A stretch of 64,000 nt of DNA from Bacteroides sp. (GCA_011056635.1 DSEO01000153.1:7563-71562), one strand, 5' to 3'; counted from the stretch's first letter, positions 13,063-64,000 are shown. The notes: generated by a model from the sequence alone, not told the origin. Numbers and translations are program-made.

Positions 13063-13078
13063 ATGCAACAGATTGCAT
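13063..13078. promoter_or_regulatory. Degenerate copy of the same palindrome (ATGCAACAGATTGCAT) upstream of the LTD gene
   Basis: 14 of 16 nt match 49734-49749, but the central CG is changed to AG. It lies ~210 nt upstream of ATG 13287. Confidence 0.3.
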
Positions 13079-37498: not shown

Positions 37499-37532
37499 TG
37501 GGACCGCAAAAAAAGTTGAACCTTAAATACGC

Positions 37533-38758: not shown

Positions 38759-41080
38759 TCAGAGGACCACGCCTTCCATGGACTTCTCCAGTGCACGCGC
38801 GTGGGTAAGGAATTCTTCCAGGGTCATCTCTTTGTAGAAAAGCAGCCCGTGGGTGGTCCTGACGCGGGGACTTTCATGTTGGTAGAAATAGTTCTTGCCC
38901 AGGAGCAGCTGCATCATTTTCAGCTGTTCCACCCAGATCCTTTTGGTAAGATCGCTGAATTTCCCGTCATGCTGGTAACTGGGGAAGGAAGCATCCACCT
39001 GGCTCAGGTAACTGTTTGTGAAAGCATCGTCCATCACTCCCATGGCATTCAGTGATACCGGTACAATGCGGTTGGCCTCTGCCGGATGGAACCGGTACCA
39101 TACATTCCTGTAGCCCCAGATCCTCAGGCCTGAGAGATCTTTTTCCCTGCTCCACAGCTTCAGGGCCTCGGCAATGACCTGGAGGACTTTGTAATGGGTA
39201 TCCGGACCGCTGCCTTCCGGGTCAAAAGCCAGGCTGACAATGGTGGGACTGATCTCGCGCAGCTGTGCCAGAATGGGCTGCACATCCCTTTCACGGTTCG
39301 GCTGCTCCGTAAAAACATCTCCCGTATAGAAACCCAGACGCATGTGGTGCACATTGCGGGACTGGATCCCGAAGCAGGCCCATACCAGTTCTTCCTCGAA
39401 TTCACGCACCATGCCTTTCAGCTTCTGGATATCAGGCAGGTTGATCTCGCCGTCATAGCTTTTTTTCAGGATCATCAGGATGTTGTTGATCTCATCCCTC
39501 AGCTGGTCCGCATTCTTCACCCCGTACAGGCCGACAATATCGCGCACCAGCCTGTGGGCCAGGCCGCGCCTGAGCTCATAATCCTCCCCCGAGGCCACTT
39601 TGAGAAGGTAATGGTTTACATCTTTGTCCCGTTTATACTTGTACCCGGTTTCAAAAAAATCCGGGTACCGGGTCATCTGGATCAGTCCCACATCCAGAAA
39701 ATGCCTGGTATCTTCCAGGGCTTCGATGATGAATTTGTTGGTCACCGCCGTAAATCCCGAAGTGAGGATCGAGAAAAAATTCGCGTTGGTCTCATTCCGC
39801 ATGAGCCGGTGGATATGCGGAAGCAGCCCCAGCATGATGTCGTCATGGTGGGGCCCCGTGTGGTAAAGAACCTGGCTTGTTTCGGTAAACATACCCTTCT
39901 CGAACCTTTCAATAGCGGACCGGATCACGGAAGGAACCGTATGCTCATCCAGTCCGGGGATCATCCTGCAGTACCGGTCCTCTTTCAAATCGCTCATGGT
40001 CAGATGGTGGCCGTATTTGGCCAGCTTCACACACAGATCGATGACAGCCCGGTCTGTTTTTTCCTGGGACCATTCTCCCTGGCTGTAGTAAGCATCCACG
40101 GATGACTGAAGGGATGAAGCGGCACCGGTGGTCAGGTAAAACCTTGCATGATCCAGCTTTGAAAGCGCACTGGCAGGATACAGGTTGGAAGGATTTTTCT
40201 CCAGCGCATCCCTCACCATGGGCGCCTTGGCCTCACCTGCAGCAAAAATAATGGCCACGGCTTCCGGATTGCAGGTAATGGTCTCCAGCCCGATGGTGAT
40301 CACCAGCCTGTTCCTGGAAACCTCGATGCCCCCCAGATCGGAGGCAGCCACCGCCTGGGTCTCGAAATTGGTCTCCGTCAACCTGGTGGTTGAAAAATGA
40401 TCCGATCCCCGGACATTGAAGGCAATATGGCCATCGGGACCAATGCCGCCCAGAAAAAAACCGATCCCTCCAAGCTCCCTGATCTTTTTCTCGTAATCGA
40501 CACACCAGTTATCGATGGAAAAGATGGAAGCCTGTTGCACTTTCTCAAACTGGCTTTTGGGCTCCCTGTACCTGAGGGTGAGGTCCACCCGGTTATCGGG
40601 GAACACCTCGGTAAAGTGACGGCCTTCAGCCAGGGGGATCTCATCTGAATTGATCAACAGTGCCCTTCGGGGATCCAGCCCGAACCCCCTGATATAATAT
40701 TTCATCACGTAATTGCAGAAACTGTTGTGCTGGCGGGAACTGATGGGATAAAATTCATCGATCTGTACAAACCGGAGCTTTCCCAGGGAAGGCTTGCCCA
40801 TCCGGCCAATCCCGTATTTGCTCCTCAGATCCCTGATCTTTCGGCTATCCCAGTGCTCCATCAGATAGGATGTCCATTTGATGAAATATTCGGGTGTTTT
40901 TCCGGTGGGCAGACTGATGATCCCTTCGGGATGCTCCCTGACCCACTCAAGGAACCTCAGGGCGGTAAAAAGTCCCAGCAGCGGAAAATTCTCCACCACG
41001 ATGTAAGGAATGCGGGTGTGCATAGCCTGTGAACCGGAAGTTTTATAGAACGCTGATTCTACTTTTGATATGAATTGCAT
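38759..41080 (-). CDS. nagB: Glucosamine-6-phosphate deaminase-like domain fused to an LmbE/PIG-L-type deacetylase-like domain (long Bacteroidota NagB form)
   Basis: NagB motif GIGPDGHIAFN in the N-terminal third. LmbE-type motif GPHHDDIMLG in the middle. The start could be 41080 or the Met at 41023. Confidence 0.7.
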   Translation of the reverse strand: MQFISKVESAFYKTSGSQAMHTRIPYIVVENFPLLGLFTALRFLEWVREHPEGIISLPTGKTPEYFIKWTSYLMEHWDSRKIRDLRSKYGIGRMGKPSLGKLRFVQIDEFYPISSRQHNSFCNYVMKYYIRGFGLDPRRALLINSDEIPLAEGRHFTEVFPDNRVDLTLRYREPKSQFEKVQQASIFSIDNWCVDYEKKIRELGGIGFFLGGIGPDGHIAFNVRGSDHFSTTRLTETNFETQAVAASDLGGIEVSRNRLVITIGLETITCNPEAVAIIFAAGEAKAPMVRDALEKNPSNLYPASALSKLDHARFYLTTGAASSLQSSVDAYYSQGEWSQEKTDRAVIDLCVKLAKYGHHLTMSDLKEDRYCRMIPGLDEHTVPSVIRSAIERFEKGMFTETSQVLYHTGPHHDDIMLGLLPHIHRLMRNETNANFFSILTSGFTAVTNKFIIEALEDTRHFLDVGLIQMTRYPDFFETGYKYKRDKDVNHYLLKVASGEDYELRRGLAHRLVRDIVGLYGVKNADQLRDEINNILMILKKSYDGEINLPDIQKLKGMVREFEEELVWACFGIQSRNVHHMRLGFYTGDVFTEQPNRERDVQPILAQLREISPTIVSLAFDPEGSGPDTHYKVLQVIAEALKLWSREKDLSGLRIWGYRNVWYRFHPAEANRIVPVSLNAMGVMDDAFTNSYLSQVDASFPSYQHDGKFSDLTKRIWVEQLKMMQLLLGKNYFYQHESPRVRTTHGLLFYKEMTLEEFLTHARALEKSMEGVVL

Positions 41081-41104
41081 ACGGCGGGTTTGTATCTGAT
41101 CTGT

Positions 41105-41866
41105 TCACATATAAAGCTCATCCAATTCTGTCATGGCAAGTTCCACCATCAGATCGGCAAGCTTGGCGGTCACCTCCTCAAAACATTTCCGGCCCTTTTC
41201 CCCGGTAGCCTTTCGGGGATCTCCGACCCCTGTATCATTCGTAGTACTGCTCCACTTCCTCTCGGCCCATGCCCAGGACTCATTCAGTGCCCGGACCCTG
41301 AATTTTTTCGCGGCTCCGCTCCCAGCCTCGGAAAGAGGCCGTACCAGGTCGGGCCGGATATGGAGCATCAGGCTGGTTTCCATTTCATCGGCATGGTCTC
41401 CTTCATGCTCGAACCACTCCTGCTTGTTCACCGACCGGAACCAGTTGCAGGTGGAGATGAACATCTCCGGGAACAGTCTCCCCACTTCCCTGATCATCTG
41501 CCTGAAATCATTGCCCCCGTGTCCGTTCACCACCAGCAGTTTATCAATGCCGTGACCGGCCAGGCTTTCCGCCAGATCGCCCAGGATGGCCATCTGCGTG
41601 CTCGGGTAAAGGTTCAGGGTCATTGCGATATCGGTCTGACCGGTGTTCACCCCCACCGGTATGGTGGGAAGGACAACCACCTTTGCGCCCCGCTCCCAGG
41701 CCACTTTTGCAGATTCGTACACAATGGCCTCCGATTCATAATTATCGGTGCCATACGGAAGGTGATAATTATGCGCCTCGGTGGCCCCCCAGGGCAGGAC
41801 CGCAAGCCGGTAATGCTCATCTTTTACTGTTTGCCAGCTGGTTTCAGCAAGAATATAAGGCCTCAT
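41105..41866 (-). CDS. Creatininase-family amidohydrolase
   Basis: 253 aa with WGATEAHNYHLPYGTD and VVNGHGGN, the metal-ligand motifs of the creatininase fold. No signal peptide. Confidence 0.75.
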   Translation of the reverse strand: MRPYILAETSWQTVKDEHYRLAVLPWGATEAHNYHLPYGTDNYESEAIVYESAKVAWERGAKVVVLPTIPVGVNTGQTDIAMTLNLYPSTQMAILGDLAESLAGHGIDKLLVVNGHGGNDFRQMIREVGRLFPEMFISTCNWFRSVNKQEWFEHEGDHADEMETSLMLHIRPDLVRPLSEAGSGAAKKFRVRALNESWAWAERKWSSTTNDTGVGDPRKATGEKGRKCFEEVTAKLADLMVELAMTELDELYM

Positions 41867-41950
41867 TTTTCTCGTGGAGTATGATAATCCGGTGAATAAC
41901 GGGTAAAATTAAAAAAAAACGGCACAAATAATGGGAAGACCGCCGGAGAA

Positions 41951-43114
41951 TCAATCCTGACGGAGGATCCGGCAGCGGGCATGGTATCTGTCCAGGATCT
42001 CCAGGGTCTCCCCTACGGGCAGGGCATCCATGCTTCTTCCGGACCGGCCCTCCATCGGGCCGGCCATGAACAGGGAATTGTAAATCGCTTCTTCGGTGGC
42101 TTCCACCACGGCCAGGAAGAGGGGTGACATGCGGTCGTTGCGGAGCCGCGGTCCCGACTGCTCGGCCTCACCCGACTGGTGGGGGATCCGCAACGCAGGA
42201 TGGGTACTGAACGCTATGGCATAATCGCCGCTCCCGTTGGAGGAAAATCCTCCGACCCTCCCGAAGGCCAGGAACGAGCGATCGCCCAGTCTTTCCAGGT
42301 TCCGGGATGAGAGCGGCGCATCGGTGGCGATGACGATCATGCATGAGCCGTCCACCTGGTATGGCACCCGTCCGGCCATGTAGTGATTTCCAAGCTCCTC
42401 TCCCACCGGTGCACCGTTGATGGTCAGGATCCCCCCGAAATTGGTCTGCACCAGCACCCCCACCGTATACCCTCCCATTTCCCCGGGCAGCACCCTGGAC
42501 GCGGTCCCTATCCCCCCTTTGAATCCCATACAGATCGTGCCTGTCCCTGCGCCCACGCAACCTTCAGTCACCGGTCCGGATCCGGCCGATGCAATGGCTT
42601 CGCGCACATGGGAAATGCGCACATGTCCCCCGCGAATATCATGCAACCACCCGTCGTTGGTCTCTCCTGCCAAAGGGTTGACCGACCGGACCTCTTCATT
42701 TCCGGGCAATGCAAGCATATACTGCACGAGTCCCTCTGCTGCCGTGAACACATCCAGTGTATTGGTCAGTGCAACCGGGGTTTCCAGGTTGCCCAGTTCC
42801 TTCACCTGGGTGAATCCGACAGCTTTCCCGAAACCATTTCCCACACTTACAGCCGCCGGCACCTTCTCCTGGAACAGGTTGCCATCGTGTGGGATGATCA
42901 CAGTCACCCCCGTCCTGACCGAATCACCTTCGATCAATGTCCGGTGACCCACCCTGACTCCCGCCACATCCGTAATGGCATTCCACTGACCGGGGGTTAG
43001 GATCCCCGGCTCGATCCCCAGTTCCCTGGCTCGTTGCCGGTCCTGGGAGAAGCATGTCAGGCTGCCAACCAGAAGGACCGGCCAGAAAACGGCCAGGAAT
43101 GGATGCATGTACAT
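41951..43114 (-). CDS. P1/S58 (DmpA/BapA-type) aminopeptidase family, with signal peptide
   Basis: N-terminal hydrophobic leader (FLAVFWPVLLVGSLTCFSQ). Family motifs NAITDVAGVRVGH and GAGTGTICMGFKGGIGTAS. Confidence 0.75.
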   Translation of the reverse strand: MYMHPFLAVFWPVLLVGSLTCFSQDRQRARELGIEPGILTPGQWNAITDVAGVRVGHRTLIEGDSVRTGVTVIIPHDGNLFQEKVPAAVSVGNGFGKAVGFTQVKELGNLETPVALTNTLDVFTAAEGLVQYMLALPGNEEVRSVNPLAGETNDGWLHDIRGGHVRISHVREAIASAGSGPVTEGCVGAGTGTICMGFKGGIGTASRVLPGEMGGYTVGVLVQTNFGGILTINGAPVGEELGNHYMAGRVPYQVDGSCMIVIATDAPLSSRNLERLGDRSFLAFGRVGGFSSNGSGDYAIAFSTHPALRIPHQSGEAEQSGPRLRNDRMSPLFLAVVEATEEAIYNSLFMAGPMEGRSGRSMDALPVGETLEILDRYHARCRILRQD

Positions 43115-43118
43115 TTTT

Positions 43119-43877
43119 TCAGTTTTCAGGTTTCAGTTTTGAAGGATCGATACTGCGGATCAGTGCCCTGGCAAGGACCCTGGTCGGGTCGATAACCATC
43201 AGGCTTCCGGCTTCCTCCGCACTCACCGCCATGGGGATCTCGGTACATCCCAGAATCACCGCCTCCGCCCCATGCTTTTCGAGGTAAGCGATCCCGCTGA
43301 GAAGATTTTCCCTGGCCCTGGGGTGGACGGGATCCGGGCAGGATTTGATCCCGTATTCCGGATCGTATATGGCGGGATGGATCAATCTTTCCTGCAACTC
43401 AGGAGCAGGCAGAACGACCTGGTATCCCATATTCTCCAGTGCTTTCGCGTACACCCCGCTCCGATAGGTCCCGGTAGTGGAAAGCACACCGATGCTGGAA
43501 AGCCCGGGGTAAGTTTTTGCCAGGTAAACAATGGTTTCGTCGATCATATGAAGCAGCCTGATGCGGCTGGCGCTTGCCTGCAGCCTGTCAAGGATCACCC
43601 CGAAGATCTTTTCTGCATGTGCGGTGTTGCAGGGGATGCCCGCAACCGTTGCACCGGCCGCTTCCAACCGGATCAGTACCTCTGCAATGACCACACCGGG
43701 ATTTACCCCGGTCTTTCCCAGCAAATATGCGGTACGGTCCGGGATCCCGGAAGGCAGGGAGAAAAGCAGGGTGTCCAGATGCTCCTGGTCGTTTCCCGCC
43801 ACGGTATTGTCAAGCACTTTGCGCAACAGGTCAAGTCCGGCATAAGGCCCTGTGCCCCCCACAATCCCGATCATCAT
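43119..43877 (-). CDS. Aspartate/glutamate-type amino-acid racemase family
   Basis: IGIVGGTGPYAG at the N-terminus and both catalytic-Cys contexts (IPCNTAH and LGCTEIP). The start overlaps the lacI stop by 4 nt (ATGA). Confidence 0.8.
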   Translation of the reverse strand: MMIGIVGGTGPYAGLDLLRKVLDNTVAGNDQEHLDTLLFSLPSGIPDRTAYLLGKTGVNPGVVIAEVLIRLEAAGATVAGIPCNTAHAEKIFGVILDRLQASASRIRLLHMIDETIVYLAKTYPGLSSIGVLSTTGTYRSGVYAKALENMGYQVVLPAPELQERLIHPAIYDPEYGIKSCPDPVHPRARENLLSGIAYLEKHGAEAVILGCTEIPMAVSAEEAGSLMVIDPTRVLARALIRSIDPSKLKPEN

Positions 43878-44923
43878 CCAGCAACAGGTAAGGGTTTTTT
43901 CTTCATGGAGGATTCCCTGACGACCAGCTGATGATCCAGTACAATGGTTTTTGTCAGTACCGGATAGTCCTGGCCGAGTATTTCGATGAGCGTGGATGCG
44001 GCCACCTCCCCCATTTCCCTGCCGGGGTAGTGGATGGTTGTCAGCCCGGGTTCGATCACCCTGGAGAGATGCACATTGTTGAACCCGACCACGGCGATAT
44101 CCTCCGGGACCCGGATCCCGTGCTGTTTCAGTTCACATATCACGGAAACAGCCGAAGAATCATTGGCGGCAAATATCCCGTCCGGTGGAGAATCCATCTT
44201 CAGTATCTTTTCTACCGCAAACGTGCCGGTCTCCTCGTTCAGGATATCGATGAATGTCAGCTGTTTATCATCGGAGATCCCGTGTTCTGCTAGCGCTTTC
44301 CTGTAACCCGCGAACCGTTCCTTGTACACATTACAGACCAGGTTCCCCCCGATGAACATGATCCTGCGGCATCCCTGTTCGATGAGGTGTGATGTCGCAT
44401 CATATCCCGCTTTTTTGTTATCGATCACCACACTTGTGCATTTGTAATGAGAATCCACCTTGACCCGGTCAAACAGGACCACCGGGATCCCTTTCCCGAA
44501 AAACATGTCCAGGTGGTTCAGATCCCTGGTATCACAGGCCAGGGAGATCAGCAGTCCCTCCACCCGGCTGTTGTACATGGTGGATATGTTGACCTTTTCT
44601 TTTTCCACAGATTCATGCGACTGACTGATGATCAGGTTATAGCCCTTCTGATTCACTTTCTTTTCAATACCGGCCACGACCGAAGACTGGAAGCTGCTGT
44701 CAAGCCTGGGCAGGATCACTCCCAGCGTGTTGGACCTGTTCTTTCTCAGGTTCCGGGCAAAGGTATTCTGCTGATACCCCATGGCCCGGGCCTTATCGAT
44801 GATCTTCCTGGTGGTCTCTTTGCGGATGGCGGGATGATTTCTCAATCCCCTGCTCACCGTGGAAGCTGAAAGGTTCAGTGCCTTGGCAATATCATATATG
44901 GTAACCTCTTTTTTCTGGTTCAT
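43874..44923 (-). CDS. LacI-family transcriptional regulator
   Basis: N-terminal HTH VTIYDIAKALNLSASTVSRGLRNHP followed by a periplasmic-binding-protein-like sugar-binding core. 349 aa. Confidence 0.9.
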   Translation of the reverse strand: MNQKKEVTIYDIAKALNLSASTVSRGLRNHPAIRKETTRKIIDKARAMGYQQNTFARNLRKNRSNTLGVILPRLDSSFQSSVVAGIEKKVNQKGYNLIISQSHESVEKEKVNISTMYNSRVEGLLISLACDTRDLNHLDMFFGKGIPVVLFDRVKVDSHYKCTSVVIDNKKAGYDATSHLIEQGCRRIMFIGGNLVCNVYKERFAGYRKALAEHGISDDKQLTFIDILNEETGTFAVEKILKMDSPPDGIFAANDSSAVSVICELKQHGIRVPEDIAVVGFNNVHLSRVIEPGLTTIHYPGREMGEVAASTLIEILGQDYPVLTKTIVLDHQLVVRESSMKKKPLPVAG

Positions 44924-44984
44924 GGGATAAAATCCCGGTTAACCGGATTGTGGTATTAAATGTAAAAAAAATCCGCCATTTTCA

Positions 44985-45000
44985 TTGCAATCGGTTGCAA
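44985..45000. promoter_or_regulatory. LacI-family-type operator candidate TTGCAATCGGTTGCAA in the divergent lacI / UROD-like promoter region
   Basis: 16-nt near-palindrome (7 of 8 pairs) with a central CG. It lies 33 nt upstream of the GTG at 45033 and 62 nt upstream of the lacI start. Its reverse complement recurs at 49734-49749. Confidence 0.65.
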
Positions 45001-45032
45001 TTTTTCTACATTTATGATGAAAAAATTGACAA

Positions 45033-46064
45033 GTGACCGAAGCTCAATGGAATAAACTCCGGGATGTCATTGACGGAAAAGCATTTAATCCCATTCCCAC
45101 CGGATTCATCGTGGACAGTCCCTGGTTGCCCAACTGGTACGGAGTAAATATTCTCGATTATTTTACAAATGACGAAATCTGGCTGAATGCAAACCTGCAT
45201 GTGGCGGATACATTCCCCGGTGTCATGTTCCTTCCCGGTTTCTGGTCTGAATTCGGAATGTGTACGGAACCATCGGCATTCGGTTCAAAATGCGCCCTCC
45301 CGAAGAATGAGTTTCCCAACACACACAGGGTGATCCATTCCATGGAAGAAATACCGAAAATGAAAAAGCCGGATCCCAAGACGGACGGTTTTGCCCCCTT
45401 CATGCTCAACCGCCTGCTGCTTAACAGGCAAAAAATCGAGGACAGCGGTCACCGGATCTGCTTTTCGGTATCCAGGGGTCCGCTCAATATCGCCTCTTTC
45501 CTGATGGGGATGACCGAATTCATGACCGCGATGATCACGAATCCGGAAGAGGTCCATCAGCTCCTCGATCTGATCAATGAATACCTGCTCGAATGGCATG
45601 AACTGCAGGCAGCGTCCATCCCCACCATCGACGGAATCTTCGTCCTGGATGACATCATCGGCTTTATCGGGGAAGAAGAATTCAGGGAATTCGGTTTGCC
45701 CTATTTCAAAAAGCTTTTCAGCAGGGAGGCATCGGTGAAGTTCCTGCATAACGATGCCACCTGCAAGTCTTCCATCAAATACATGAACGAGATGGGCGTC
45801 AACCTTTTCAATATGGGTTTTGAATCAGATCTCAATGAATTGAAAACGCTCACGATGGACCGTGTCACCATGATGGGGAACATCCCTCCCAGGGATGTAC
45901 TGGCCAACGGCACCGGCGAAGAGATTGAAAAAGCGGTGAAGGCTCTGATCGGGGGACTGAAGCAGAAAAGCAGGGTCATCATGTCCTGCGGCGGAGGAAT
46001 GCCCCCGGATGTGACCTCGGAACAGATCCGGGCTTTCACGGACGCGGTCGCAAAGTACAGCTGA
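45033..46064 (+). CDS. Uroporphyrinogen-decarboxylase (URO-D/MtaA-like) family protein, cytoplasmic
   Basis: 343 aa with a GTG start; no in-frame ATG lies upstream. The overall URO-D-family pattern includes GPLNIASFLMG, DGIFVLDD..G.I..EEF.EFGLPYFKKL, FLHNDA and MMGNIPPRDVL. No signal peptide. Confidence 0.7.
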   Translation: MTEAQWNKLRDVIDGKAFNPIPTGFIVDSPWLPNWYGVNILDYFTNDEIWLNANLHVADTFPGVMFLPGFWSEFGMCTEPSAFGSKCALPKNEFPNTHRVIHSMEEIPKMKKPDPKTDGFAPFMLNRLLLNRQKIEDSGHRICFSVSRGPLNIASFLMGMTEFMTAMITNPEEVHQLLDLINEYLLEWHELQAASIPTIDGIFVLDDIIGFIGEEEFREFGLPYFKKLFSREASVKFLHNDATCKSSIKYMNEMGVNLFNMGFESDLNELKTLTMDRVTMMGNIPPRDVLANGTGEEIEKAVKALIGGLKQKSRVIMSCGGGMPPDVTSEQIRAFTDAVAKYS

Positions 46065-46090
46065 AACAGATGATATAATATATATATGGT

Positions 46091-47347: not shown

Positions 47348-47359
47348 CACATTGCACAG

Positions 47360-48262: not shown

Positions 48263-48310
48263 GCCGGATCATCATGAATGCATGTTCAATCCTATAAAAA
48301 CCATAAACCC

Positions 48311-49687: not shown

Positions 49688-49733
49688 ATTTATGAAGTTA
49701 TCTCTTGGCCAATTAAAAAGTTTTTGTAACTTG

Positions 49734-49749
49734 TTGCAACCGATTGCAT
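49734..49749. promoter_or_regulatory. LacI-family-type operator candidate TTGCAACCGATTGCAT upstream of SusC
   Basis: 15 of 16 nt are identical to the reverse complement of 44985-45000. It lies 54 nt upstream of the SusC ATG (49803). Confidence 0.65.
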
Positions 49750-49802
49750 AAGCAAATCAAATAAACCAACCCAATTTACCTAACTAATCTAAAACTAATT
49801 CT

Positions 49803-52739: not shown

Positions 52740-52759
52740 TTGATAACGGATGCTAAAAC

Positions 52760-54490: not shown

Positions 54491-54512
54491 TGAGGTTTTA
54501 GGTTAGAGCAAT

Positions 54513-54555
54513 GCTGCCTTCCGGGAATATGAGGTGCCCCGGAAGGCAGCTTTTT
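54513..54555. terminator. Bidirectional hairpin terminator between convergent SusD and ampG-like genes
   Basis: Perfect 13-bp stem GCTGCCTTCCGGG / CCCGGAAGGCAGC with a 12-nt loop, followed by TTTTT on the + strand. It lies 23 nt after the SusD stop and 4 nt after the ampG-like stop. Confidence 0.75.
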
Positions 54556-56360: not shown

Positions 56361-57771
56361 TCCTGTAATAATGCAGGAGGATCTGGTGGTAGGTATACCC
56401 CCTGTCTGCCATCACCGCCGCACCGATCTGGCACAGTCCCACCCCGTGCCCCCAGCCGGCCCCGTGCAAGATGAATTTTCCAGGCACTCCCTCCCTGAAT
56501 CCTTCCTTTTGCACCGTGAATGCCGCACTGTAAAGGTGTGACCGGCTCAGCCAACGCCTGATCTCCAGTTCCTTCCCGATGGTGATGGTCTGCTGGGTTC
56601 CCACGATCTTCAACCGGACCAGCCTGGCCGATGCACCACGTTCCACCGGCACAAGGTCCAGGATCTTCCCGAAATCCCGCCCCGATTTCTCCCGGACCAG
56701 CGCTGCAAGTTCCTCCTGGCTGTAAGACACCTGCCAGCGAAAAAAATCCTTCGAAGCCAGGTCATAATCGTTGAGCACCATTCCGAGCAATTCCCTGTCG
56801 GATGTATTGCAGAATGCTTCCGGCCTGCTGCGGATGTATGCAACCGCGTTCCTTTCGACACGCAGGTCCGGGATCGCTCCTCCCGCGGTCTCCGGTCTGT
56901 CCGGCACGGGCTGCAGGTATGGATGCGGCACCTCCTCCCAGCAATGCTCATACCGTTCGGTGATTCCACCGCAGCATTTGGAAAACCGGGCATCGCAGAT
57001 CTCATCCCCGTAAAACAGCACTTCCCCGGCAGTGCTTTGCACCGCCCCGGCCACTTCGGGATGGTGTGCACGGGTAATCCCCTGGTAGCGCTGACAATGG
57101 TCATCGGCACACACATCGAATGTATCATGATCCTCCCGGTCGTACCACCGGATCAGCTCCTCCCCGGTTTCACGCATACTTTGCTTCCGGGGCCCGTTCC
57201 CGTCCAGGGCATTCTTTCTTTCCATCTGGGCCAGCAGCCAGCTCCGGGAAATGACCGCATGGGCTTTCAGAAATTCGGGCGGACTGCCGGCATTCATTTC
57301 CGAAGAAATGACACTGGCCAGGTAGCTTTCCACGGGGATCTCGTTGATCACCTGGATAAGGCCATCCAGGATCTCCAGCACCAGGGTCCCCCGAAATCTC
57401 TGGTCCTCCCTCCGCTCCCAGTGGAATCCGATCCCGATCACCACATCGAAGAGCTCAAAATACGCGGAATCCGGCTCACGGGGCTCGAACAGGATGGTTC
57501 CGGAAGGGGCGGCGCCACCGGGAGAAGCAGCGCCACCAGCAGTGGCAACACCGGGGGAGGTGATCCCGGGGGAGGTGATCAGCCGCGTTTCCTGCATGAC
57601 CTCCACGCGGCCGTTCCGGATGCCTGCCTCGCCGCTTCCCGACCATGGTTCGCCGCTCCCCGGTGTCAGGTATTGCCCGTTCAGCTGAAAACGGATGCTT
57701 GCGGCCCTGAGGATCCCCACCCGGACGCGGGGTGACCTGTCTCCCGTTATATGTCCTTCACCCCTAATCAT
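56332..57771 (-). CDS. SpoIID/LytB-domain protein (no recognisable signal peptide)
   Basis: SpoIID motifs PPEFLKAHAVISRSWLLAQ and DVCADDHCQRYQG. The N-terminus MIRGEGHITGDRSPRVRVG is hydrophilic. The start overlaps the upstream stop by 4 nt (ATGA). Confidence 0.75.
   Translation of the reverse strand: MIRGEGHITGDRSPRVRVGILRAASIRFQLNGQYLTPGSGEPWSGSGEAGIRNGRVEVMQETRLITSPGITSPGVATAGGAASPGGAAPSGTILFEPREPDSAYFELFDVVIGIGFHWERREDQRFRGTLVLEILDGLIQVINEIPVESYLASVISSEMNAGSPPEFLKAHAVISRSWLLAQMERKNALDGNGPRKQSMRETGEELIRWYDREDHDTFDVCADDHCQRYQGITRAHHPEVAGAVQSTAGEVLFYGDEICDARFSKCCGGITERYEHCWEEVPHPYLQPVPDRPETAGGAIPDLRVERNAVAYIRSRPEAFCNTSDRELLGMVLNDYDLASKDFFRWQVSYSQEELAALVREKSGRDFGKILDLVPVERGASARLVRLKIVGTQQTITIGKELEIRRWLSRSHLYSAAFTVQKEGFREGVPGKFILHGAGWGHGVGLCQIGAAVMADRGYTYHQILLHYYRNATIRKCYE
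57551..57580. repeat. Perfect 15-nt tandem duplication inside the SpoIID-like CDS
   Basis: CCGGGGGAGGTGATC occurs twice in a row. It encodes ITSPG-ITSPG within a Gly/Ala/Ser/Pro-rich linker. Confidence 0.9.
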
Positions 57772-58730
57772 TTTTTATGGCTCCATGCGGATACAAGGTG
57801 GTCGAGCAATGCCCCGAAGCGGTCCTCACGCATGGAAACCTGTGCGAAGATGTCCCTGATGTCATCCCCGGAGATCTGATTGAAATCCTTCTCAAGGGGC
57901 GTGATCAGCAGGCCTCCCAGGTCCACTGCGGCCGGACTGAGCAATATGTTCTTTTCTCCCTTTTCGAAAAATTGGCGGGGACGGTGCCTGTCCCGCGGAA
58001 AGACAAAAATCTGCCACCGGTCGCTGTAATATGCCAGGATATTGAGCATGGATTCGCCTCCCTCCCGAAGCTGCTTTGTAAAATCATCAATGGGGATGAA
58101 TGCATCCTTGATCCGTTCCTTCACATCCGATTCCAGCAGGATCATGCGCCTCAAGCCGTCATCCATGGCCACGGCTGTAAATCCCGGGGATTCTGCCACC
58201 GGTTTGCCATATCTTTTTACCAGGACCGGCAATTCCTCCTCGATGGGAAGGATCCCCCTGCTGCCCGCCTGGAAATGCATGTGGTCCGGTGCGGATGCCC
58301 CGCAATCCGGTCCGTTGTAAAATACCACCAGTCCGGGCAGGGCCCTGCTCAACTCAAGCAGCCATGTGACTTCGGTTCCGATGACCTGCGGGGTATGCAC
58401 GGTCCTGGCGATGGTGAGATGTTCCCTGAAAATGGGGAAGGGATTGCAGAGGATCTCGTAGGCATTGCCGAATTTCAGGGACTTTTGCTGCGGGGGACGG
58501 TTTTCGGCGCAGAGGAAACACTTCCTGTGTTTCACGGATACGGGATCGACCTTTGCCGCAGAAGAGGTGATCCGCGCGGGATTGAATTGCACCCGCATGG
58601 TGAAATCCCCGAATTGAATGGTCCTCAGGCGCACGTCCTCCAGCTTTGCATGGTTATACCCGAGCAGCGGCCAGGCCCTCAATTGCGATTCATAAAATGC
58701 ATTGACTCTTTCCTGGTATTCCATCACCAT
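57768..58730 (-). CDS. DUF4922-like protein with GalT/GDP-L-galactose-phosphorylase-type HIT motif
   Basis: 320 aa containing APDHMHFQAG (the H-x-H-x-Q motif of the GalT branch of the HIT superfamily). No signal peptide. It overlaps both neighbouring genes. Confidence 0.55.
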   Translation of the reverse strand: MVMEYQERVNAFYESQLRAWPLLGYNHAKLEDVRLRTIQFGDFTMRVQFNPARITSSAAKVDPVSVKHRKCFLCAENRPPQQKSLKFGNAYEILCNPFPIFREHLTIARTVHTPQVIGTEVTWLLELSRALPGLVVFYNGPDCGASAPDHMHFQAGSRGILPIEEELPVLVKRYGKPVAESPGFTAVAMDDGLRRMILLESDVKERIKDAFIPIDDFTKQLREGGESMLNILAYYSDRWQIFVFPRDRHRPRQFFEKGEKNILLSPAAVDLGGLLITPLEKDFNQISGDDIRDIFAQVSMREDRFGALLDHLVSAWSHKK

Positions 58731-60199
58731 TGCGCGCCTTTCTGATTGATCCGGATCCTTGCGTTCAGCTCGATGGTACGCAGGCGGTCCTTGTACGCAT
58801 CGTGCCTGTTCCTCGCTTCCGCGCTGAGGGTAGCATCCGTGTTATCTTCCCACCGCCTGCACAGGTACATGGGCCGGTAGATCCTTCCGATGCGGTAGTA
58901 TCTGCTGATGGCCAGCGCCACCCCGTAATCCTCCCCGTAACTTACATTGGGGATGTTGATCTGTCGCAGCACCGGTGTGAAAAAAGCCCGCGGAGCACCC
59001 AGTCCGTTGATGCGGAGTGCATTGTTCCTGCCGTTTTCCGGCGTCCACTCCCTGTGGTCCACGATCCCCGGCGGGATCTCCTCCAGGTCGAAGCTGGTCA
59101 CCCTGTAAGACCCGATCACCATGGCACACCGCTCCTCATAAAACGTCCGGACGATCTGTTCCAGGACCGAATCATCGTTGTACAGGTCATCGCTGTCCAG
59201 CTGGACCGCGAACCTGCCGCATGCGGCATGATGCACCGCTTCATTCCAGCAGCCCCCGATCCCCAGGTCCTTTCTCCCGGGAATGAGATGGACCAGGTTC
59301 GCATATTTTTCCCCGGCCTTTCTGACGATCTCCGTGGTCCGGTCGGTGGAGTGATTGTCCACAACGATCAGGTTGTATGCAAAGCCGGCCTTCTGGCGCA
59401 TGACCGATCCGATGGCATCGCCAATGGTCCTTTCCCGGTTCAGAACGGGAATGATCACGGAAGCTTCCGCTTCAAAGCTGCCTTCATCGAGGGACACCTC
59501 CCGGAAACGGGGTGACAGGTATGCCCCGGCATCCTGCAGATGGAGGGTGACGGCCCGCTCCATTTCCTGCTGTATTTCCCTGCCGGCAGGATCCAGGTAA
59601 TCGAAGATACTTTTCCCCGGATCTGCGACATCCGGCCGGTCCACCGTGTACAGATATTCCGGGATGCGTACCACCGGGCAATGGCGACTGATCTTCAGGC
59701 GCAGCATGTAGAGCCCTGCATGCCTGAAAGACTCGGGTATCCCTTCGGCGGCTTTTCGCAGCGCCGGGCTGCTGAAGAACAGGATGGGGCCGAAATCAAA
59801 ATCATCCCGCAGACTTCCCTGCTGGTAATCGATCACCGGATGGGGCGAAAGTTTCCCACCGGACAGGTCCAGGTGATCCGCATACACGATCCCCGCATCC
59901 ATGTCCCCCGCCACCGACAGGAACCGCTCGATGGCGAACTGTCCCAGCCGGATGGCAACCTGCCTGGTCACCACCATCGCATGGTCTGCCCCGGATGCAT
60001 ACCGGCTGATGGTACGGATGGTTTCCGTACCGAACAGTCCGTCTGTCCGGACAAACGTGCATTTTTCAACGGAAGGTCCCGTCTCTTCCTGTCCCAGCAG
60101 GAAAATCCGGCGTACATGGGGATGGGCCGAGAGCTCCTGCAGGAAGTCCGTCCGGGCCTCCGGTCCCTGCGCGGGTATGAAACAGTGAATTGTGCTCAT
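58724..60199 (-). CDS. Family-2 glycosyltransferase with ~230-aa N-terminal extension
   Basis: GT2 core ASVIIPVLNRERTIGDAIGSVMRQ...NLIVVDNHSTDRT...QLDSDD in the C-terminal half. No signal peptide or TM segment is seen. Confidence 0.75.
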   Translation of the reverse strand: MSTIHCFIPAQGPEARTDFLQELSAHPHVRRIFLLGQEETGPSVEKCTFVRTDGLFGTETIRTISRYASGADHAMVVTRQVAIRLGQFAIERFLSVAGDMDAGIVYADHLDLSGGKLSPHPVIDYQQGSLRDDFDFGPILFFSSPALRKAAEGIPESFRHAGLYMLRLKISRHCPVVRIPEYLYTVDRPDVADPGKSIFDYLDPAGREIQQEMERAVTLHLQDAGAYLSPRFREVSLDEGSFEAEASVIIPVLNRERTIGDAIGSVMRQKAGFAYNLIVVDNHSTDRTTEIVRKAGEKYANLVHLIPGRKDLGIGGCWNEAVHHAACGRFAVQLDSDDLYNDDSVLEQIVRTFYEERCAMVIGSYRVTSFDLEEIPPGIVDHREWTPENGRNNALRINGLGAPRAFFTPVLRQINIPNVSYGEDYGVALAISRYYRIGRIYRPMYLCRRWEDNTDATLSAEARNRHDAYKDRLRTIELNARIRINQKGAQW

Positions 60200-60206
60200 C
60201 GATTTT

Positions 60207-63191
60207 TCAGTTCAGCAGGTACTCCAGGATCCTGGCCATGATCATATCCCGCTCCCCGGGATCGATAATGGTCTCGAACGGGAACCCGAAGGCCACCACG
60301 TTCCAGGCTCCTTTCCAGGCCACCGCGGCGCTCATGTTATTCTCCGCATACCTTGCCAGGGTAAAGGCAGTGGAATCGGCAGGCTCCAGTGCATCGGCGC
60401 CTTCCACCACATAGATATCAGGATGATATGCCGTGTTGAAACTGTACCGGGTCTGCACCTCCGAAAAACCGGGGTCCATAAAATAGAACTTTCCCAGCCG
60501 GGAGGCGTTGCCGGTCCTCCATTTGTATTTCAGCAGCACTGCCACCAGGGAATCCTGCCCGAGGGAATGGGGATCGGATGCAATATGGGCCCCTGAAATG
60601 AACATGTTCCCGCCCCCCTCAAGGTATTTCGAAATGACCGTGAGAAGCGTGCCGGGAAAGACCTGAAACCAACCGACGGTGTCATTTTTGGGCATATGGG
60701 TGGTCTTCTCCTCGCCGGCGATAAAATCCACCGCGTCATACACTCCCAGTTCCGCCTCACCATCTTCCACCGTTTCATCGCTGACCGATACGAAGGAGTA
60801 GCCGGCTGCCCTGACGGAAACCCCGTGCACGTAGCAGAAGTCAAAACTGTTCCCGGGATACACATCCTGTTCAAGATCCGCGTACGAAGCTCCGTGTCCG
60901 GGTGAATCATCATCCAGCCAGGGTGAGCGCTCGCTGAAATCGAACTGGGCACCCACCGTATGGAGATCTTCCTGAAAAGGAACACCCTGATCCACCATAT
61001 GCAGGAACCCCGAATGCGCCTCGTCGTCGAACCAGGCCGGACCGCCGGTCCTGTCAAATGCGCTGATAAGCAGGATGGTCCTGTCCGATCCGGTCCTTTT
61101 GCACACGGAAAGGACCTCTGAAGGAAAGCTTTCACCTCCCCTGTTCAGGGCGGTGACCCTGAAGGAGTAAATGGAATCGGGAGCGCACTGCGGCAATGAA
61201 AAGGTGGTTCCCTCCACGCTGATCCCCTGGTCCCACCCTTCCCCGTTGATCCTGGTGTACACCCGGTAGCTATCCGGATCCGCTGTGGGCTCAAGGGGAT
61301 CGGCCCGGGGCTTCCAGTGCAGGTTGATCCCTCCCTGCCCGCTGAATTCAGAGCGAAAGGAGCGGACCGGAAGCGGCTGCACCACGGTCTCGAAATCGTA
61401 CAGCTCAGCCAGGAACCGCAACATTCCCTTGTAGATCGCCCGGCATACATCAAACCTGAAAGCGGGTTCACTGCCGAAACGCATATCCATGAGGTTCTGG
61501 TGGGAAAGCAGCTCAAGCAGCATGGAGGGGACATTGGGCCGGTAAGCCTCGCTGTAATCCCGGTCCCACATAGCCCTCCTTACCCAGTCAGGGTCATATT
61601 TGGCCCGGATATCCTCCACGATCTGGGTCTGGATCAGATCGGTCATATCCCGGGAAGCCATTCTGGAGAGCCCGCCAGGAAAAAATCCCCGGTTCGACCG
61701 GGTGCTGTAGATCCCCAGGGTACCGATGACCGTATCGCTGCCGCTGATCCCCGCATCCGTATGAAAGGCAAAAGAAAGATCGATGGGGATGCCCAGTCCC
61801 GTTACACCCCTCCCCTTCGCAGGACCCGATAAATTGCCTGCCAGGTAATTGACCCACTCACCCCGGCTCTGGTAATCGTCTGTATAATCGTTCACGGGTG
61901 TATTGAGCCTCCACACCAGGCTGTCTGGAAAACCTGCATATTGCAGGTAATAACGGGCCGATTCCTGGTAACGGGGACGGTTGCTGGTGAGTCCGTTCCT
62001 GGAAATATTGCCCGTACCTCCGCCGAACCTCACCGCATCGGCGGAAATGCTTGCGTTGCGGCGACTGCTTTTATTGGTAAGTACCACCTGGCCTTTCCCG
62101 GCATGGATCCCCCCGGGGAACCGGAACCTCCCCAGGTATACCCAGGTTCCCCCGCCCATCTGCTGATTCACGGAGAATTCCGTCCTCCCCCCTGCGTGAT
62201 ACACCGTATAACGTACATCGTCCGCATTGGCGGGGGATGCATGGTAGGACACGTAGACCGCGTAATACCCCTCTGCCGGAATATCGGGGATCCAGGTCAC
62301 CATCCCGGTACCGTTCCGGTCCGAACCCATCTCCTGGTAACTCCCCAGTGTGAATGGATTTTCATCCACATAGGGGGGATGCCCGATACCGAAACCCGTT
62401 CCGGGGACGGACTGTATGGCATTTTCCGTACTGAAGCAGATACTGTTCCCTGTGCTCCCGTCATTGTCCACCACCACCTCGTTCACCTGCCAGTCACGTT
62501 CCCGCGGAAGGAATACATTCGCTCCCGCATTTTCAAGCATGGGGACCAGCAACTGGAGGTTAAAAGCCATGGGAAACAGGTCCTCCACAGTCTGGAAGAT
62601 CCTGGCACGCTGCCATTCCCAGCGGTGCAGCGAAGGTTCGTAATACCAGCCGTGGCTGTGCCACAGTGCGATGTTCGTATGGTAGAGGGATGCATCGGAG
62701 AGATAAGGCCTGGAAAGGTTTTGCACCAGCGGCGGGGATTTCCTTTTCAGTCGCCCCACCACGCGGTCCCTGTCCTTGTCTCTTCTGTCCGTCCTGTAAT
62801 AATTGGGTATGTACTCCCGGATGTTCCTCCTGCAGGACCAGATCTCCAGGTCATATGTATTGAAAGGAAACGGAAGGTCTTCTTTCAGGCCATCTTCAAA
62901 AAACTGGATGGTCCGCTCCCTGAGCGGGGCATAGGCCAGTCTCGCATCCAGGTGAACCCGGATGTTACTTTTTCTTGCGTCAATGAGCACGTTATCGATC
63001 CGGATCGAGTCCTTTTGCTGATAACCGGTCAATTCGACGAACAGCCGTCCGTTGAAATATTTCTGCACATTCCTTTCCAGCTGCTCCATGACCAGGGAAT
63101 CCCCGGATGCATATATCGCACGGGCACCGAGGAATGGGGAGAGCATAAAAGAAAACAGCAGGGTGAAAACCCATCTTCGGAAAATAAACAT
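60207..63191 (-). CDS. Secreted ~1000-aa protein with MurNAc-L-Ala-amidase-like (Amidase_3-type) and golvesin-C/Xly-like regions
   Basis: Signal peptide MFIFRRWVFTLLFSFMLSPFLGARA. The block YAVYVSYHASPANADDVRYTVYHAGG...GGTWVYLGRF resembles the golvesin-C-like module. FAFHTDAG and MLLELLSHQN resemble amidase_3 metal and Glu motifs. The family assignment is tentative. Confidence 0.45.
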   Translation of the reverse strand: MFIFRRWVFTLLFSFMLSPFLGARAIYASGDSLVMEQLERNVQKYFNGRLFVELTGYQQKDSIRIDNVLIDARKSNIRVHLDARLAYAPLRERTIQFFEDGLKEDLPFPFNTYDLEIWSCRRNIREYIPNYYRTDRRDKDRDRVVGRLKRKSPPLVQNLSRPYLSDASLYHTNIALWHSHGWYYEPSLHRWEWQRARIFQTVEDLFPMAFNLQLLVPMLENAGANVFLPRERDWQVNEVVVDNDGSTGNSICFSTENAIQSVPGTGFGIGHPPYVDENPFTLGSYQEMGSDRNGTGMVTWIPDIPAEGYYAVYVSYHASPANADDVRYTVYHAGGRTEFSVNQQMGGGTWVYLGRFRFPGGIHAGKGQVVLTNKSSRRNASISADAVRFGGGTGNISRNGLTSNRPRYQESARYYLQYAGFPDSLVWRLNTPVNDYTDDYQSRGEWVNYLAGNLSGPAKGRGVTGLGIPIDLSFAFHTDAGISGSDTVIGTLGIYSTRSNRGFFPGGLSRMASRDMTDLIQTQIVEDIRAKYDPDWVRRAMWDRDYSEAYRPNVPSMLLELLSHQNLMDMRFGSEPAFRFDVCRAIYKGMLRFLAELYDFETVVQPLPVRSFRSEFSGQGGINLHWKPRADPLEPTADPDSYRVYTRINGEGWDQGISVEGTTFSLPQCAPDSIYSFRVTALNRGGESFPSEVLSVCKRTGSDRTILLISAFDRTGGPAWFDDEAHSGFLHMVDQGVPFQEDLHTVGAQFDFSERSPWLDDDSPGHGASYADLEQDVYPGNSFDFCYVHGVSVRAAGYSFVSVSDETVEDGEAELGVYDAVDFIAGEEKTTHMPKNDTVGWFQVFPGTLLTVISKYLEGGGNMFISGAHIASDPHSLGQDSLVAVLLKYKWRTGNASRLGKFYFMDPGFSEVQTRYSFNTAYHPDIYVVEGADALEPADSTAFTLARYAENNMSAAVAWKGAWNVVAFGFPFETIIDPGERDMIMARILEYLLN

Positions 63192-63272
63192 ATCAGGATA
63201 TCAACTTTACTTTACAGCACTACCATTCACACAGCATAAAACTAACATATATTCGGGTACCCTGTAATTTTT

Positions 63273-64000
63273 TTACCGACAGGGGTAAAGATAATATTTC
63301 CGGGCCTTCTTCATGAAATCCTCCCTTTCCCTGCTGTCGCCCCGCCAGATCTCCAGCGCTTTTTCAATATCCCCTTCCATGATCGATTGCCTTACCCGGT
63401 CTGTTCCGCACACCCGGTCGAACGAACCGTACTGCGCTTCCCTGCCCAAAAATACATCGAAGGCTGGGGCAACTTTCACCGCATCCTGGAGGAAACGGAA
63501 CTGGATTTCGGTGAGTACAGCCTGCTGAAGGTCGGTCAGGTAGATCTGCACCCCCTGCAGCGCTTCTCCCTTTTTTGCCATATAATAGGGCTTCAGGTAA
63601 ATTGGACGAAAAATAACGCCTTCCAGGCCCCTGTGGTTCATGGTATCCGCCAGGGCTTCCGCATCCATTTGAGCGGTGACAAGTGTCTGAAAAGGAAGGG
63701 TATAACCGATCCCGACCATGTTTGGATCCAGTTCCCCCAGAATGCCTGTGGCCGCATTGTAAAACACGGTCCGCTCATCCGGAATGTGGGGAGAAGTGGG
63801 CACCCACAGCAGCCCGGTCCTGTCAAAGGTCATCTCCCTTTCCCACCCTTCCATGGGCACCACCTGCAGGCTGCACCGCCTGCCTCCCTCGAGCATCCCC
63901 TCCCCGTTCAGCATCAGCGCCAGCTCACCGCAGGTCATTCCGTACAGATAAGGGATGGCGTACCGGCTTACAAAGGAACGGAATCCCTCCTCCGCCAGGC
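63273..64000 (-). CDS. namZ: DUF1343 / NamZ-type exo-beta-N-acetylmuramidase family, C-terminal part; 5' end outside window
   Basis: The frame stays open to the window edge (upstream codons ...SRYAIPYLYG precede MTCGELALMLNGE). WVPTSPHIP and the C-terminal DUF1343 layout are present. Confidence 0.65.
   Translation of the reverse strand, partial: LAEEGFRSFVSRYAIPYLYGMTCGELALMLNGEGMLEGGRRCSLQVVPMEGWEREMTFDRTGLLWVPTSPHIPDERTVFYNAATGILGELDPNMVGIGYTLPFQTLVTAQMDAEALADTMNHRGLEGVIFRPIYLKPYYMAKKGEALQGVQIYLTDLQQAVLTEIQFRFLQDAVKVAPAFDVFLGREAQYGSFDRVCGTDRVRQSIMEGDIEKALEIWRGDSREREDFMKKARKYYLYPCR

Follow-up and report, generated by a model that had tools for sequence, protein, structure and literature searches.

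A possible mosaic of three gene units around a peptidoglycan-salvage operon in Bacteroides sp. DNA

The right-hand 25 kb of a 64,000-nucleotide stretch of Bacteroides sp. DNA (GCA_011056635.1 DSEO01000153.1:7563-71562; the whole stretch is called the window below) carries a LacI-headed module of peptide and amino-sugar enzyme families, a cassette with oxidoreductase and SusC/SusD genes, and an ampG operon. A preliminary description of the window had proposed that all of these form one cell-wall scavenging super-locus. We have examined positions 38759-64000 together with 5.6 kb beyond the right end, and three transcription blocks were found: A (38759-44923, minus strand), B (45033-54490, plus strand), and C (54555-64000, minus strand). 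With a probability of roughly 0.5, we regard the region as a mosaic of three evolutionarily separable units rather than one dedicated locus. The proposal is supported for C, which is a peptidoglycan-salvage operon, and in part for the link between A and C; it is not supported for B, which is portable and separated from C by a terminator, no operator of the kind found in A and B being present in C. On the mosaic reading, C handles peptidoglycan and A plausibly does likewise, and B probably oxidizes some other or broader glycoside. The new element of the region is cassette B together with the dehydrogenase swap described below, and not a super-locus. The case shows the reach of neighbourhood inference: a known peptidoglycan operon is present, and only part of its surroundings is evolutionarily tied to it.

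Sequences and Gene Search

Genes were called from a listing of open reading frames (ORFs) and from profile scans with Pfam and NCBIfam, and homologous loci from other genomes are labelled with L-numbers (L001 etc.). For the AmpG survey, 80 species-level genome loci around AmpG homologs 51-74% identical to that of the window were collected, and the window proteins were mapped onto them; counts of upstream genes use the 52 of these loci having at least 8 kb of upstream sequence. Gene families, operators, the terminator, and synteny statistics are given below as observed, whereas every substrate and reaction step is an inference. The scans have confirmed most families of the earlier gene list, which had omitted GT2, DUF4922, and URO-D-like genes and contained one unsupported "amidase-like" label.

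The ampG Operon

Block C is an unexceptional case of a peptidoglycan-salvage operon that is already known and that many Bacteroidota share. This is concluded because its gene order is that of a co-transcribed operon of Tannerella forsythia and because its upstream genes recur in relatives. The genes, all on the minus strand, are in order of transcription as follows: a member of the NamZ exo-beta-N-acetylmuramidase family (63273-64000, cut by the window end; 420 amino acids (aa) in full, as seen in L171), with the Pfam domains NamZ_N and NamZ_C both present in the partial gene; a secreted 994-aa protein (60207-63191) with a Golvesin_C/xanthan-lyase C-terminal-like domain and fn3 (Pfam), which is the counterpart of Tanf_08345 "xanthan lyase"; a GT2 glycosyltransferase of 491 aa (58724-60199; Pfam Glycos_transf_2, E 2e-21, residues 247-387), whose N-terminal 240 aa have no family match; a cytoplasmic DUF4922/GDPGP1_C protein with a HIT-like nucleotide-sugar phosphorylase fold (57768-58730; Pfam E 2e-59, and a GDPGP1_C match); a SpoIID/LytB-domain protein (56332-57771; TIGR02669, 175 bits); and, as the last gene, an AmpG-type MFS permease (54555-56360). 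Neighbouring genes overlap by 4-29 nt or are separated by gaps of 8 and 81 nt, and this spacing suggests that they are co-transcribed. The NamZ, SpoIID-like, and AmpG-type genes had been described as a peptidoglycan-turnover operon, and both their families and the T. forsythia-type order bear this out. The label "amidase-like" for the 994-aa protein was rejected, since Amidase_3 gave E=0.068 and the sole solid relative is the xanthan-lyase C-terminal domain.

The permease gives 181 bits with TIGR00901, split over two stretches, where the curated cut-off is 350. An inserted hydrophilic segment of about 155 aa (residues about 185-340 in the hydropathy profile) lowers the score; it occupies the central loop between the six-helix halves and is kept in all homologs of about 590-610 aa from metagenome-assembled genomes (MAGs) of Bacteroidota, Ignavibacteriota, and Calditrichota. 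The homologs carry the AmpG annotation in their source records, and at 51-82% identity they occur in at least 80 species. Of the 52 usable loci, 32 have SpoIID upstream of AmpG, 27 have GT2, 26 have DUF4922, and 22 have the 994-aa protein there; NamZ is present, on either side, in 22 of all 80.

In T. forsythia, the genes Tanf_08345-08370 (xanthan-lyase-like, gtf, gtf, lytB, ampG, and ybbC/NamZ) form one transcript by reverse transcription PCR, their AmpG is functional, and the operon continues into murTKQ (PMC5388701). This AmpG is required for growth on disaccharides of N-acetylglucosamine (GlcNAc) with N-acetylmuramic acid (MurNAc) or its anhydro form, GlcNAc-MurNAc and GlcNAc-anhMurNAc (PMC7670621). 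As judged by families and order, the window has the same families in nearly the same order (994-aa Golvesin_C protein, GT2, DUF4922, SpoIID/LytB, and AmpG), with NamZ co-directional within the operon. However, NamZ lies at the 5' end in the window and after AmpG in T. forsythia, and the side on which murTKQ follows there is occupied in the window by the convergent SusC/D cassette and the LacI module. By analogy with the tested operon, the secreted enzymes of C would trim glycan, and the AmpG-type permease would import GlcNAc-MurNAc or GlcNAc-anhMurNAc.

The operon may start well before NamZ, at (GH2-GH97-DUF2254-)NamZ, because genes for GH2, GH97, and DUF2254 lie upstream of and co-directional with NamZ beyond the right end (L171:1-6927), with a 4-nt overlap between the stop of DUF2254 and the start of NamZ. 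These two genes have been called as one 466-aa product in L175. A separate observation is that the cytoplasmic GT2 and DUF4922 genes, the latter with a GDP-L-galactose phosphorylase-like HIT fold, are kept in ampG operons from Tannerella to Prolixibacteraceae, a puzzling nucleotide-sugar pair in a salvage operon.

The Predicted LacI Regulon and the Border between B and C

The first gene of A encodes a LacI-family repressor (43874-44923, minus strand) with the LacI helix-turn-helix and Peripla_BP domains. A search of the 64 kb with TGCAANCGNTTGCA gave three perfect matches, at 44986, 49735, and 5250, and a site with one mismatch at 13064. The operator O1, TGCAATCGGTTGCA (44986-44999), is a perfect canonical LacI-family palindrome in the 109-bp intergenic region between the divergent LacI and URO-D-like genes, and O2, TGCAACCGATTGCA (49735-49748), is a perfect match between the GFO and SusC genes, which is found also in L001-L004 and L171. 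Seven sites with at most two mismatches were observed against 2.3 expected, and none of 100 shuffles reached seven. The same perfect operator lies 61 nt upstream of the orthologous LacI gene in L169, and a version with one mismatch lies upstream of that in L015. A repressor with a helix-turn-helix and a sugar-binding domain and palindromic TGnAAnCGnTTnCA-type predicted operators at its target promoters are thus both present, and A and B are predicted to be one LacI regulon, with 14-bp operators at the divergent LacI/URO-D promoter and before SusC. The earlier idea of a LacI regulon reaching SusC/D agrees with the perfect sites at 44986 and 49735, and a concrete regulon with its operator has now been defined that can be tested.

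The repressor is 60% identical to the LacI at the head of the same module in L169 and 57% to that of L015, against 40% to the LacI of the DUF6807 cassette in L173, at which the operator motif was not found. These values indicate that the repressor belongs to module A and that B has been drawn into its regulon. Operator sites with at most two mismatches were found neither in block C nor in the 5.6 kb upstream of NamZ, so that C is predicted to be outside the regulon.

SusD is convergent with the ampG operon at a distance of exactly 64 nt, as had been reported, and this gap holds a terminator hairpin (54513-54550) consisting of a 13-bp perfect stem with a 12-nt loop followed by U5 on the plus strand. 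The hairpin was spotted by eye and confirmed by folding (whole-fragment dG -29.8 kcal/mol, z -4.7); a simple terminator scan missed it because of the 12-nt loop. In the closest relative, L175, the stem is identical and the loop is different, and a conserved stem with a varying loop is what is expected of a functional terminator.

Two further operator-type sites were noted in the cellulase-rich left part of the window. The perfect TGCAACCGATTGCA site at 5250-5263 is inside a xylose-isomerase-like TIM-barrel ORF (4873-5775, minus strand), and the site with one mismatch at 13064-13077 precedes a third GFO/IDH/MocA gene (11443-12954, minus strand) by 110 nt. Because of these sites, the LacI regulon may extend 30-40 kb leftward.

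Module A and Its Link to AmpG

The other genes of A are also on the minus strand. A cytoplasmic Asp/Glu-type racemase (43119-43877) matches TIGR00035 with 138 bits (cut-off 93) and CuyB, the cysteate racemase, with 173 bits, just below the cut-off of 190; a 60% identical ortholog is at the same position in L169. A secreted Peptidase_S58 protein of the DmpA-type D-aminopeptidase family (41951-43114; Pfam E 1e-114, signal peptide) has as its closest structures in PDB the D-aminopeptidases 2drh, 5tzb, and 1b65, and its orthologs in L090 and L169 are 71-73% identical. A cytoplasmic creatininase-fold metal hydrolase (41105-41866; Pfam Creatininase, E 2e-60) is closest in PDB to 3lub, a putative enzyme without known function, and has orthologs of 67-82% identity in L006, L010, L015, L085, L088, L090, L168, and L169. 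The secreted DmpA-like peptidase, the racemase, the creatininase fold, and the LacI repressor had all been named in the preliminary description and have been borne out by Pfam, NCBIfam, and signal peptide prediction.

The last gene of A encodes a cytoplasmic 773-aa fusion of a NagB-like part with the GlcN-6-P deaminase fold and an LmbE/PIG-L-like deacetylase part (38759-41080; NCBIfam and AlphaFold2 model), a reading proposed earlier which is upheld at the level of fold. In the profile scans it gave 186 bits for PRK02122, below the cut-off of 384, E 4e-23 for nagB, 82 bits for TIGR00502 against a cut-off of 237, and a weak E 0.087 for Pfam PIG-L. The AlphaFold2 model (pLDDT, the predicted local confidence, 73) matches NagB at E 1e-10 and the PIG-L/LmbE deacetylases LnmX, chitobiose deacetylase, and MshB at E 3e-4 to 7e-3, with a TM score of about 0.5. 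The NagB half keeps the GGIGPDGHIAFN motif and, of the catalytic set Asp141-His143-Glu148, retains Asp and His in DGHIAFN and has Val at the Glu148 position. In 30 homologs of the fusion, PHHDD (411-414) and PDTH (626-629) are invariant, and homologs are 71-88% identical. From these families, the secreted D-aminopeptidase-type enzyme, the creatininase-fold hydrolase, and the racemase may carry out downstream peptide and D-amino-acid steps, and the deacetylase-deaminase fusion would send an amino sugar to fructose-6-phosphate.

NagB is a part of canonical peptidoglycan recycling. As in the Gram-negative pathway (AmpG-NagZ-AmpD-AnmK-MurQ-NagA-NagB, with the AmgK-MurU bypass), an AmpG-type permease and a NagB-type deaminase occur together here, and they are often adjacent in relatives. 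In contrast to that pathway, the deaminase of the window is fused to an LmbE-like deacetylase and lacks the Glu148 equivalent, and NagZ, AmpD, AnmK, MurQ, NagA, AmgK, and MurU were not seen in the 70 kb examined.

Within 10 kb on the downstream side of AmpG, 7 of the 80 loci have an ortholog of the fusion (65-82% identity) and 3 have one of the creatininase-fold hydrolase; one of these 3 (L006) has no fusion within the 10 kb covered. Either or both follow AmpG in 8 loci, in three different arrangements. A distance of 15-105 nt separates AmpG from a co-directional fusion gene behind it in five loci (L016, L017, L019, L020, and L024). L015 has AmpG, LacI, URO-D-like, creatininase, Gluconate_2-dh3, GMC oxidoreductase, multihaem cytochrome c, (PAD), and NagB fusion in this order; L010 resembles it, and so does L006 up to the cytochrome c gene, where its 10 kb ends. 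In the genome of L008 and L169, the full module (LacI, racemase, S58, the second URO-D-like type URO-D', creatininase, and NagB fusion) and AmpG are co-directional and about 35 kb apart. A distant NagB-like gene is directly upstream of AmpG in L031, which is a different lineage with a different order.

Because the fusion follows AmpG in 7 of 80 loci and is directly adjacent in five, the link between A and C is real but generic. Module A would recur downstream of AmpG because its amino-sugar end is shared with peptidoglycan recycling. In the L170 locus, where AmpG is missing, the fusion is flanked by genes for a GH20 hexosaminidase and a NagX-like protein, a context from which we take it to be a general amino-sugar enzyme. 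A metagenome scan for the creatininase-fold gene gave 80 loci, of which only three (66-82% identity) share the context of the window. Its homologs of 55-63% identity lack any recurrent neighbour, the best family reaching 9 of 52 loci, and beyond close relatives the gene therefore carries no information.

Cassette B and the Dehydrogenase Swap

All genes of B are on the plus strand. The cassette opens with a cytoplasmic protein of the URO-D/MtaA superfamily (45033-46064; Pfam URO-D, E 5e-40), a 46% identical ortholog of which opens the same cassette in L166. It is followed by two DUF6807 proteins with signal peptides: protein a of 418 aa (46091-47347; Pfam E 7e-62), with orthologs of 43-63% identity in L165-L167, and protein b of 300 aa (47360-48262; Pfam E 2e-63), with homologs of 73-83% identity across Bacteroidota. 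The AlphaFold2 model of protein b (pLDDT 73.9, pTM 0.78) finds galactose mutarotase as its best PDB match (E 3e-5), so that a galactose-mutarotase-like beta-supersandwich is predicted from a weak match. Functional data were not found in the literature on DUF6807, PF14100, or "PmoA family protein". The next gene encodes a GFO/IDH/MocA dehydrogenase (48278-49687) with GFO domains, predicted to be exported by the twin-arginine translocation (TAT) system (Pfam TAT_signal, TIGR01409, and a KRRNFLK motif). Its best NCBIfam match is BT_2158_fam (NF058561; 122.6 bits over model positions 1-259 of 487), and its best PDB matches are 8tdf, 8tdh, and DgpA, which place it, by similarity, closest to glycoside 3-dehydrogenases. 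A SusC-type TonB-dependent transporter (49803-52739; TIGR04056, 832 bits; 62% ortholog in L166) and a SusD-type lipoprotein (52760-54490; Pfam SusD_RagB; 53% identical to the L166 protein and 92% to that of L175) complete the cassette.

Cassette B is a portable, putatively oxidative cassette, whose contact with C is recent and insulated by the terminator. In the 80 AmpG loci, no orthologs of the DUF6807 proteins, of the URO-D type of the window, or of its SusC/D pair were found, and the junction of B and C is seen only in the closest relative L175 (AmpG 81%, SusD 92% identity). A check for conserved co-localization of both loci gave a split answer: the NagB fusion of A is near AmpG in 7 of the 80 loci and cassette B in none of them. 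Outside this set, the same six genes (46-74% identical) stand under an AraC regulator in L166, a Mariniphaga MAG. The DUF6807/GFO core is found with LacI, MFS, and URO-D genes in L165 (a Cytophagales MAG), with AraC, SDR, and UxuA in L167, with LacI, SusC/D, BcGHD, URO-D, a second GFO, and a TIM barrel in L173, and with sulfatases in L174. These five B-type loci (L165, L166, L167, L173, and L174) contain no recognized peptidoglycan genes. L165:1-1943 does carry adjoining genes for an APH-family kinase and an NTP_transferase, at a distance of about 4 kb from its DUF6807/GFO cassette. Such a domain pair is expected of AmgK/MurU; this candidate is unconfirmed, NCBIfam giving no supporting match.

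In sister genomes, a set of GMC, small-subunit, and cytochrome c dehydrogenase genes is in place of B. A likely history is that B was recruited into the regulon of A in this lineage, with sister genomes having the GMC set instead, and that its position next to C would be an insertion into a variable slot. In Bacteroides thetaiotaomicron, disaccharides are degraded via 3-keto intermediates by a GFO dehydrogenase exported through the TAT system, which acts together with a DUF1080 hydrolase and a protein of the TIM-barrel type, and the cytochrome c-dependent dehydrogenases LacABC and ThuAB perform the same step in other bacteria (PMC8121099). We infer that the GMC/small-subunit/cytochrome c trio of L010, L015, and L085 is of the LacABC/ThuAB class. 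The swap of GMC for GFO/DUF6807 at one position suggests non-orthologous displacement within one pathway. Should the swap between AmpG and the amino-sugar deaminase be confirmed, it would indicate that amino-sugar glycosides are processed by oxidation, which current schemes of peptidoglycan recycling do not include.

Like BT2156-BT2160 of the same study (PMC8121099), the window has a TAT-exported GFO/IDH/MocA dehydrogenase nearest to glycoside 3-dehydrogenases, and a DUF1080 partner with a second TAT-GFO protein is 0.4 kb to the left of the region. The partners within cassette B, however, are two DUF6807 proteins and a URO-D-like protein instead of DUF1080 and a TIM barrel resembling IolE, the dehydrogenase falls far short of the BT_2158 cut-off, and the cassette is coupled to SusC/D, LacI, and amino-sugar and peptide enzymes. 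An adjacent SusC/SusD pair is present and predicted to be co-regulated with periplasmic sugar-processing enzymes as in a canonical Bacteroidota polysaccharide utilization locus (SusC/SusD, glycoside hydrolases, and a SusR/HTCS/ECF regulator). Cassette B differs from such a locus in having oxidoreductases and no glycoside hydrolase or lyase, a LacI-type regulator, and no inner-membrane transporter; Pfam scans of 38759-54490 found no glycoside hydrolase or polysaccharide lyase domain. From these resemblances, SusC/D may import a glycan or glycoside, the NAD-dependent dehydrogenase would oxidize it in the periplasm, most likely at C3, and the two secreted DUF6807 proteins, with their predicted mutarotase-like sugar-binding folds, might process the keto-sugar. 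The value of the cassette (URO-D-like, two DUF6807, TAT-GFO, and SusC/D) is that it is widely conserved and that DUF6807 is without assigned function.

A side observation concerns window positions 52760-56360, at which SusD is 92% identical to that of L175 but the adjacent AmpG is 81%; DUF6807b keeps about 80% identity from family to family. Either unusually strong constraint on cassette B or a recent transfer of it accounts for this.

SusC/D and URO-D-like Genes at Other ampG Loci

SusC is within 10 kb of AmpG in 12 of 80 loci, which by our estimate is about background density. The mere presence of SusC/D near AmpG was therefore rejected as evidence, and only tight co-directional cases were counted (L068 and L051). 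In L068:5539-19671, from a Microbacter MAG, genes for a MurK-like protein, MurQ (381 bits), GT2, DUF4922, AmpG, NamZ, a NagX-like protein, SusC, and SusD run on one strand, and this run is a candidate for a true peptidoglycan utilization locus with outer-membrane uptake. In L051:97-13386 and L076, from Draconibacterium MAGs, the order is SpoIID, AmpG, NamZ, URO-D-like (a third subtype), SusC, and SusD, followed by a Metallophos/PQQ-propeller protein. The SusC/D proteins at these ampG operons are only 23-26% identical to those of the window, and the URO-D-like proteins have no significant similarity, so that they are not orthologous. The idea that the same URO-D gene links the window to the sister genomes was likewise rejected, because the two are 21% identical; there are four subtypes at 25% identity or less, and a recurrence at the level of family remains.

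Weighing the Explanations

Several findings weigh against the mosaic reading. The co-localization of A and C is mostly that of one clade (AmpG 63-74% identical), and its counts are inflated by shared ancestry; the adjacency of B and C is kept in the nearest relative, L175. In L051, L076, and L068, SusC/D pairs and URO-D-like genes, the latter of three unrelated subtypes, are found beside AmpG and NamZ, so that proteins of both kinds can belong to peptidoglycan loci and B-like gene sets may have a part in peptidoglycan use. The fold match of DUF6807 is weak (TM 0.38-0.47) with a model of medium confidence, and the GFO score of 122.6 bits is far under the BT_2158 equivalog cut-off of 750. In addition, A and B have no inner-membrane transporter, and because AmpG is the sole such carrier in the 25 kb, a cooperation of B, A, and C is possible.

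Such cooperation would be complete if the whole 25 kb were one peptidoglycan or necromass system, in which SusC/D import muropeptides, NamZ, S58, and the oxidoreductases trim them, AmpG carries them in, the racemase, creatininase-fold hydrolase, and NagB fusion finish the work, and GFO, DUF6807, and URO-D proteins replace MurQ. Beside the lone carrier and the junction kept in L175, this would fit the sister genomes, in which a different periplasmic dehydrogenase set, the GMC trio, fills with URO-D' and creatininase the interval from AmpG to the NagB fusion, all in one direction, and the co-directional SusC/D genes in the ampG operons of L068 (with MurQ) and of L051 and L076 (after NamZ and a URO-D-like gene). 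It would fit also the lack of MurQ, MurK, AmgK, and MurU in the window, which had been reported and with which our domain scans agree: SIS/MurQ, BadF-type kinase, APH, and NTP_transferase domains were found neither in window ORFs of at least 180 aa nor in the 5.6 kb past its right end, the remainder of the genome not having been searched, and the ampG operon of L068 served as a positive control for the MurQ search with its 381 bits. We nevertheless judge one system to be quite improbable, since B is absent from all 80 AmpG loci, B or its core is present in five other genomes without recognized peptidoglycan genes (with the unconfirmed pair of L165 about 4 kb off), C has no operator, a terminator separates B from C, and the SusC/D proteins at other ampG operons are of the 23-26% identity given above. 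Chemistry also speaks against it: the 3-OH of MurNAc is etherified, which excludes direct action of a 3-dehydrogenase, so that such an enzyme could act only on the GlcNAc moiety.

The adjacency might, on the other hand, have no functional meaning. A and B would then serve another glycan or glycoside, such as a plant or algal glycoside or a chitin/chitosan-type polymer, the site downstream of AmpG would be a hot spot, and the NagB fusion would be a housekeeping gene with an inherited position. The content downstream of AmpG indeed varies, with unrelated convergent SusC/D pairs in L005 and L009 and other genes in L008, L012-L014, L018, and L021; the distance from AmpG to A is 0, about 9.5, or about 35 kb; and the fusion of L170 has its place in a locus without AmpG. 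The creatininase homologs of 55-63% identity without conserved context and the operator-like sites near the third GFO gene and the TIM-barrel gene in the cellulase-rich part can be read in the same way. Against this stand the five genomes in which the fusion abuts AmpG, 15-105 nt away on the same strand, the NagB-like gene directly upstream of AmpG in L031, the chance of only about 0.4% of genomes for a single-copy gene to be within 10 kb of AmpG, and the role of NagB in canonical recycling. We think this explanation somewhat unlikely, and prefer the mosaic of three units.

A bolder proposal is that the LacI regulon and its GMC/cytochrome c counterpart are a previously undescribed oxidative, MurQ-independent branch for peptidoglycan amino sugars. 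A periplasmic glycoside 3-dehydrogenase with DUF6807 keto-sugar partners would act on GlcNAc-containing disaccharides, AmpG would take up the products, and the URO-D-like, creatininase-fold, and LmbE-NagB proteins would finish the work in the cytoplasm. We consider this a long shot. If it were true, the repeated replacement of dehydrogenases between AmpG and the NagB fusion would be non-orthologous displacement in a single pathway.

Genes on the Left Flank

A second TAT-GFO dehydrogenase of 494 aa (36014-37498) and a DUF1080 "3-keto-disaccharide hydrolase" lipoprotein (37533-38327), both on the plus strand and assigned by Pfam, are convergent with the NagB fusion. This pair is outside the range 38759-64000 and yet within the same conserved neighbourhood, as it adjoins the fusion also in L088 and L168; L169, whose contig ends there, shows the GFO gene alone. 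The operator search gave no site upstream of the pair at 36014-38327.

Further left, a gene of the PAD_porph family (agmatine/peptidyl-arginine deiminase type; 34598-35875) has a low GC content of 0.40 against about 0.54 on the right side, and a 61% identical ortholog adjoins the NagB fusion in L015 in a different order. The part from 3848 to 34425 is a glycan-degradation region, which includes GH5, GH9+GH5 with a type IX secretion system (T9SS) sorting domain, GH5+CBM6, and a 1317-aa LTD/T9SS protein. It also includes two SusC/SusD pairs interleaved with several fasciclin-domain proteins, and this SusC/fasciclin block is syntenic with L168.

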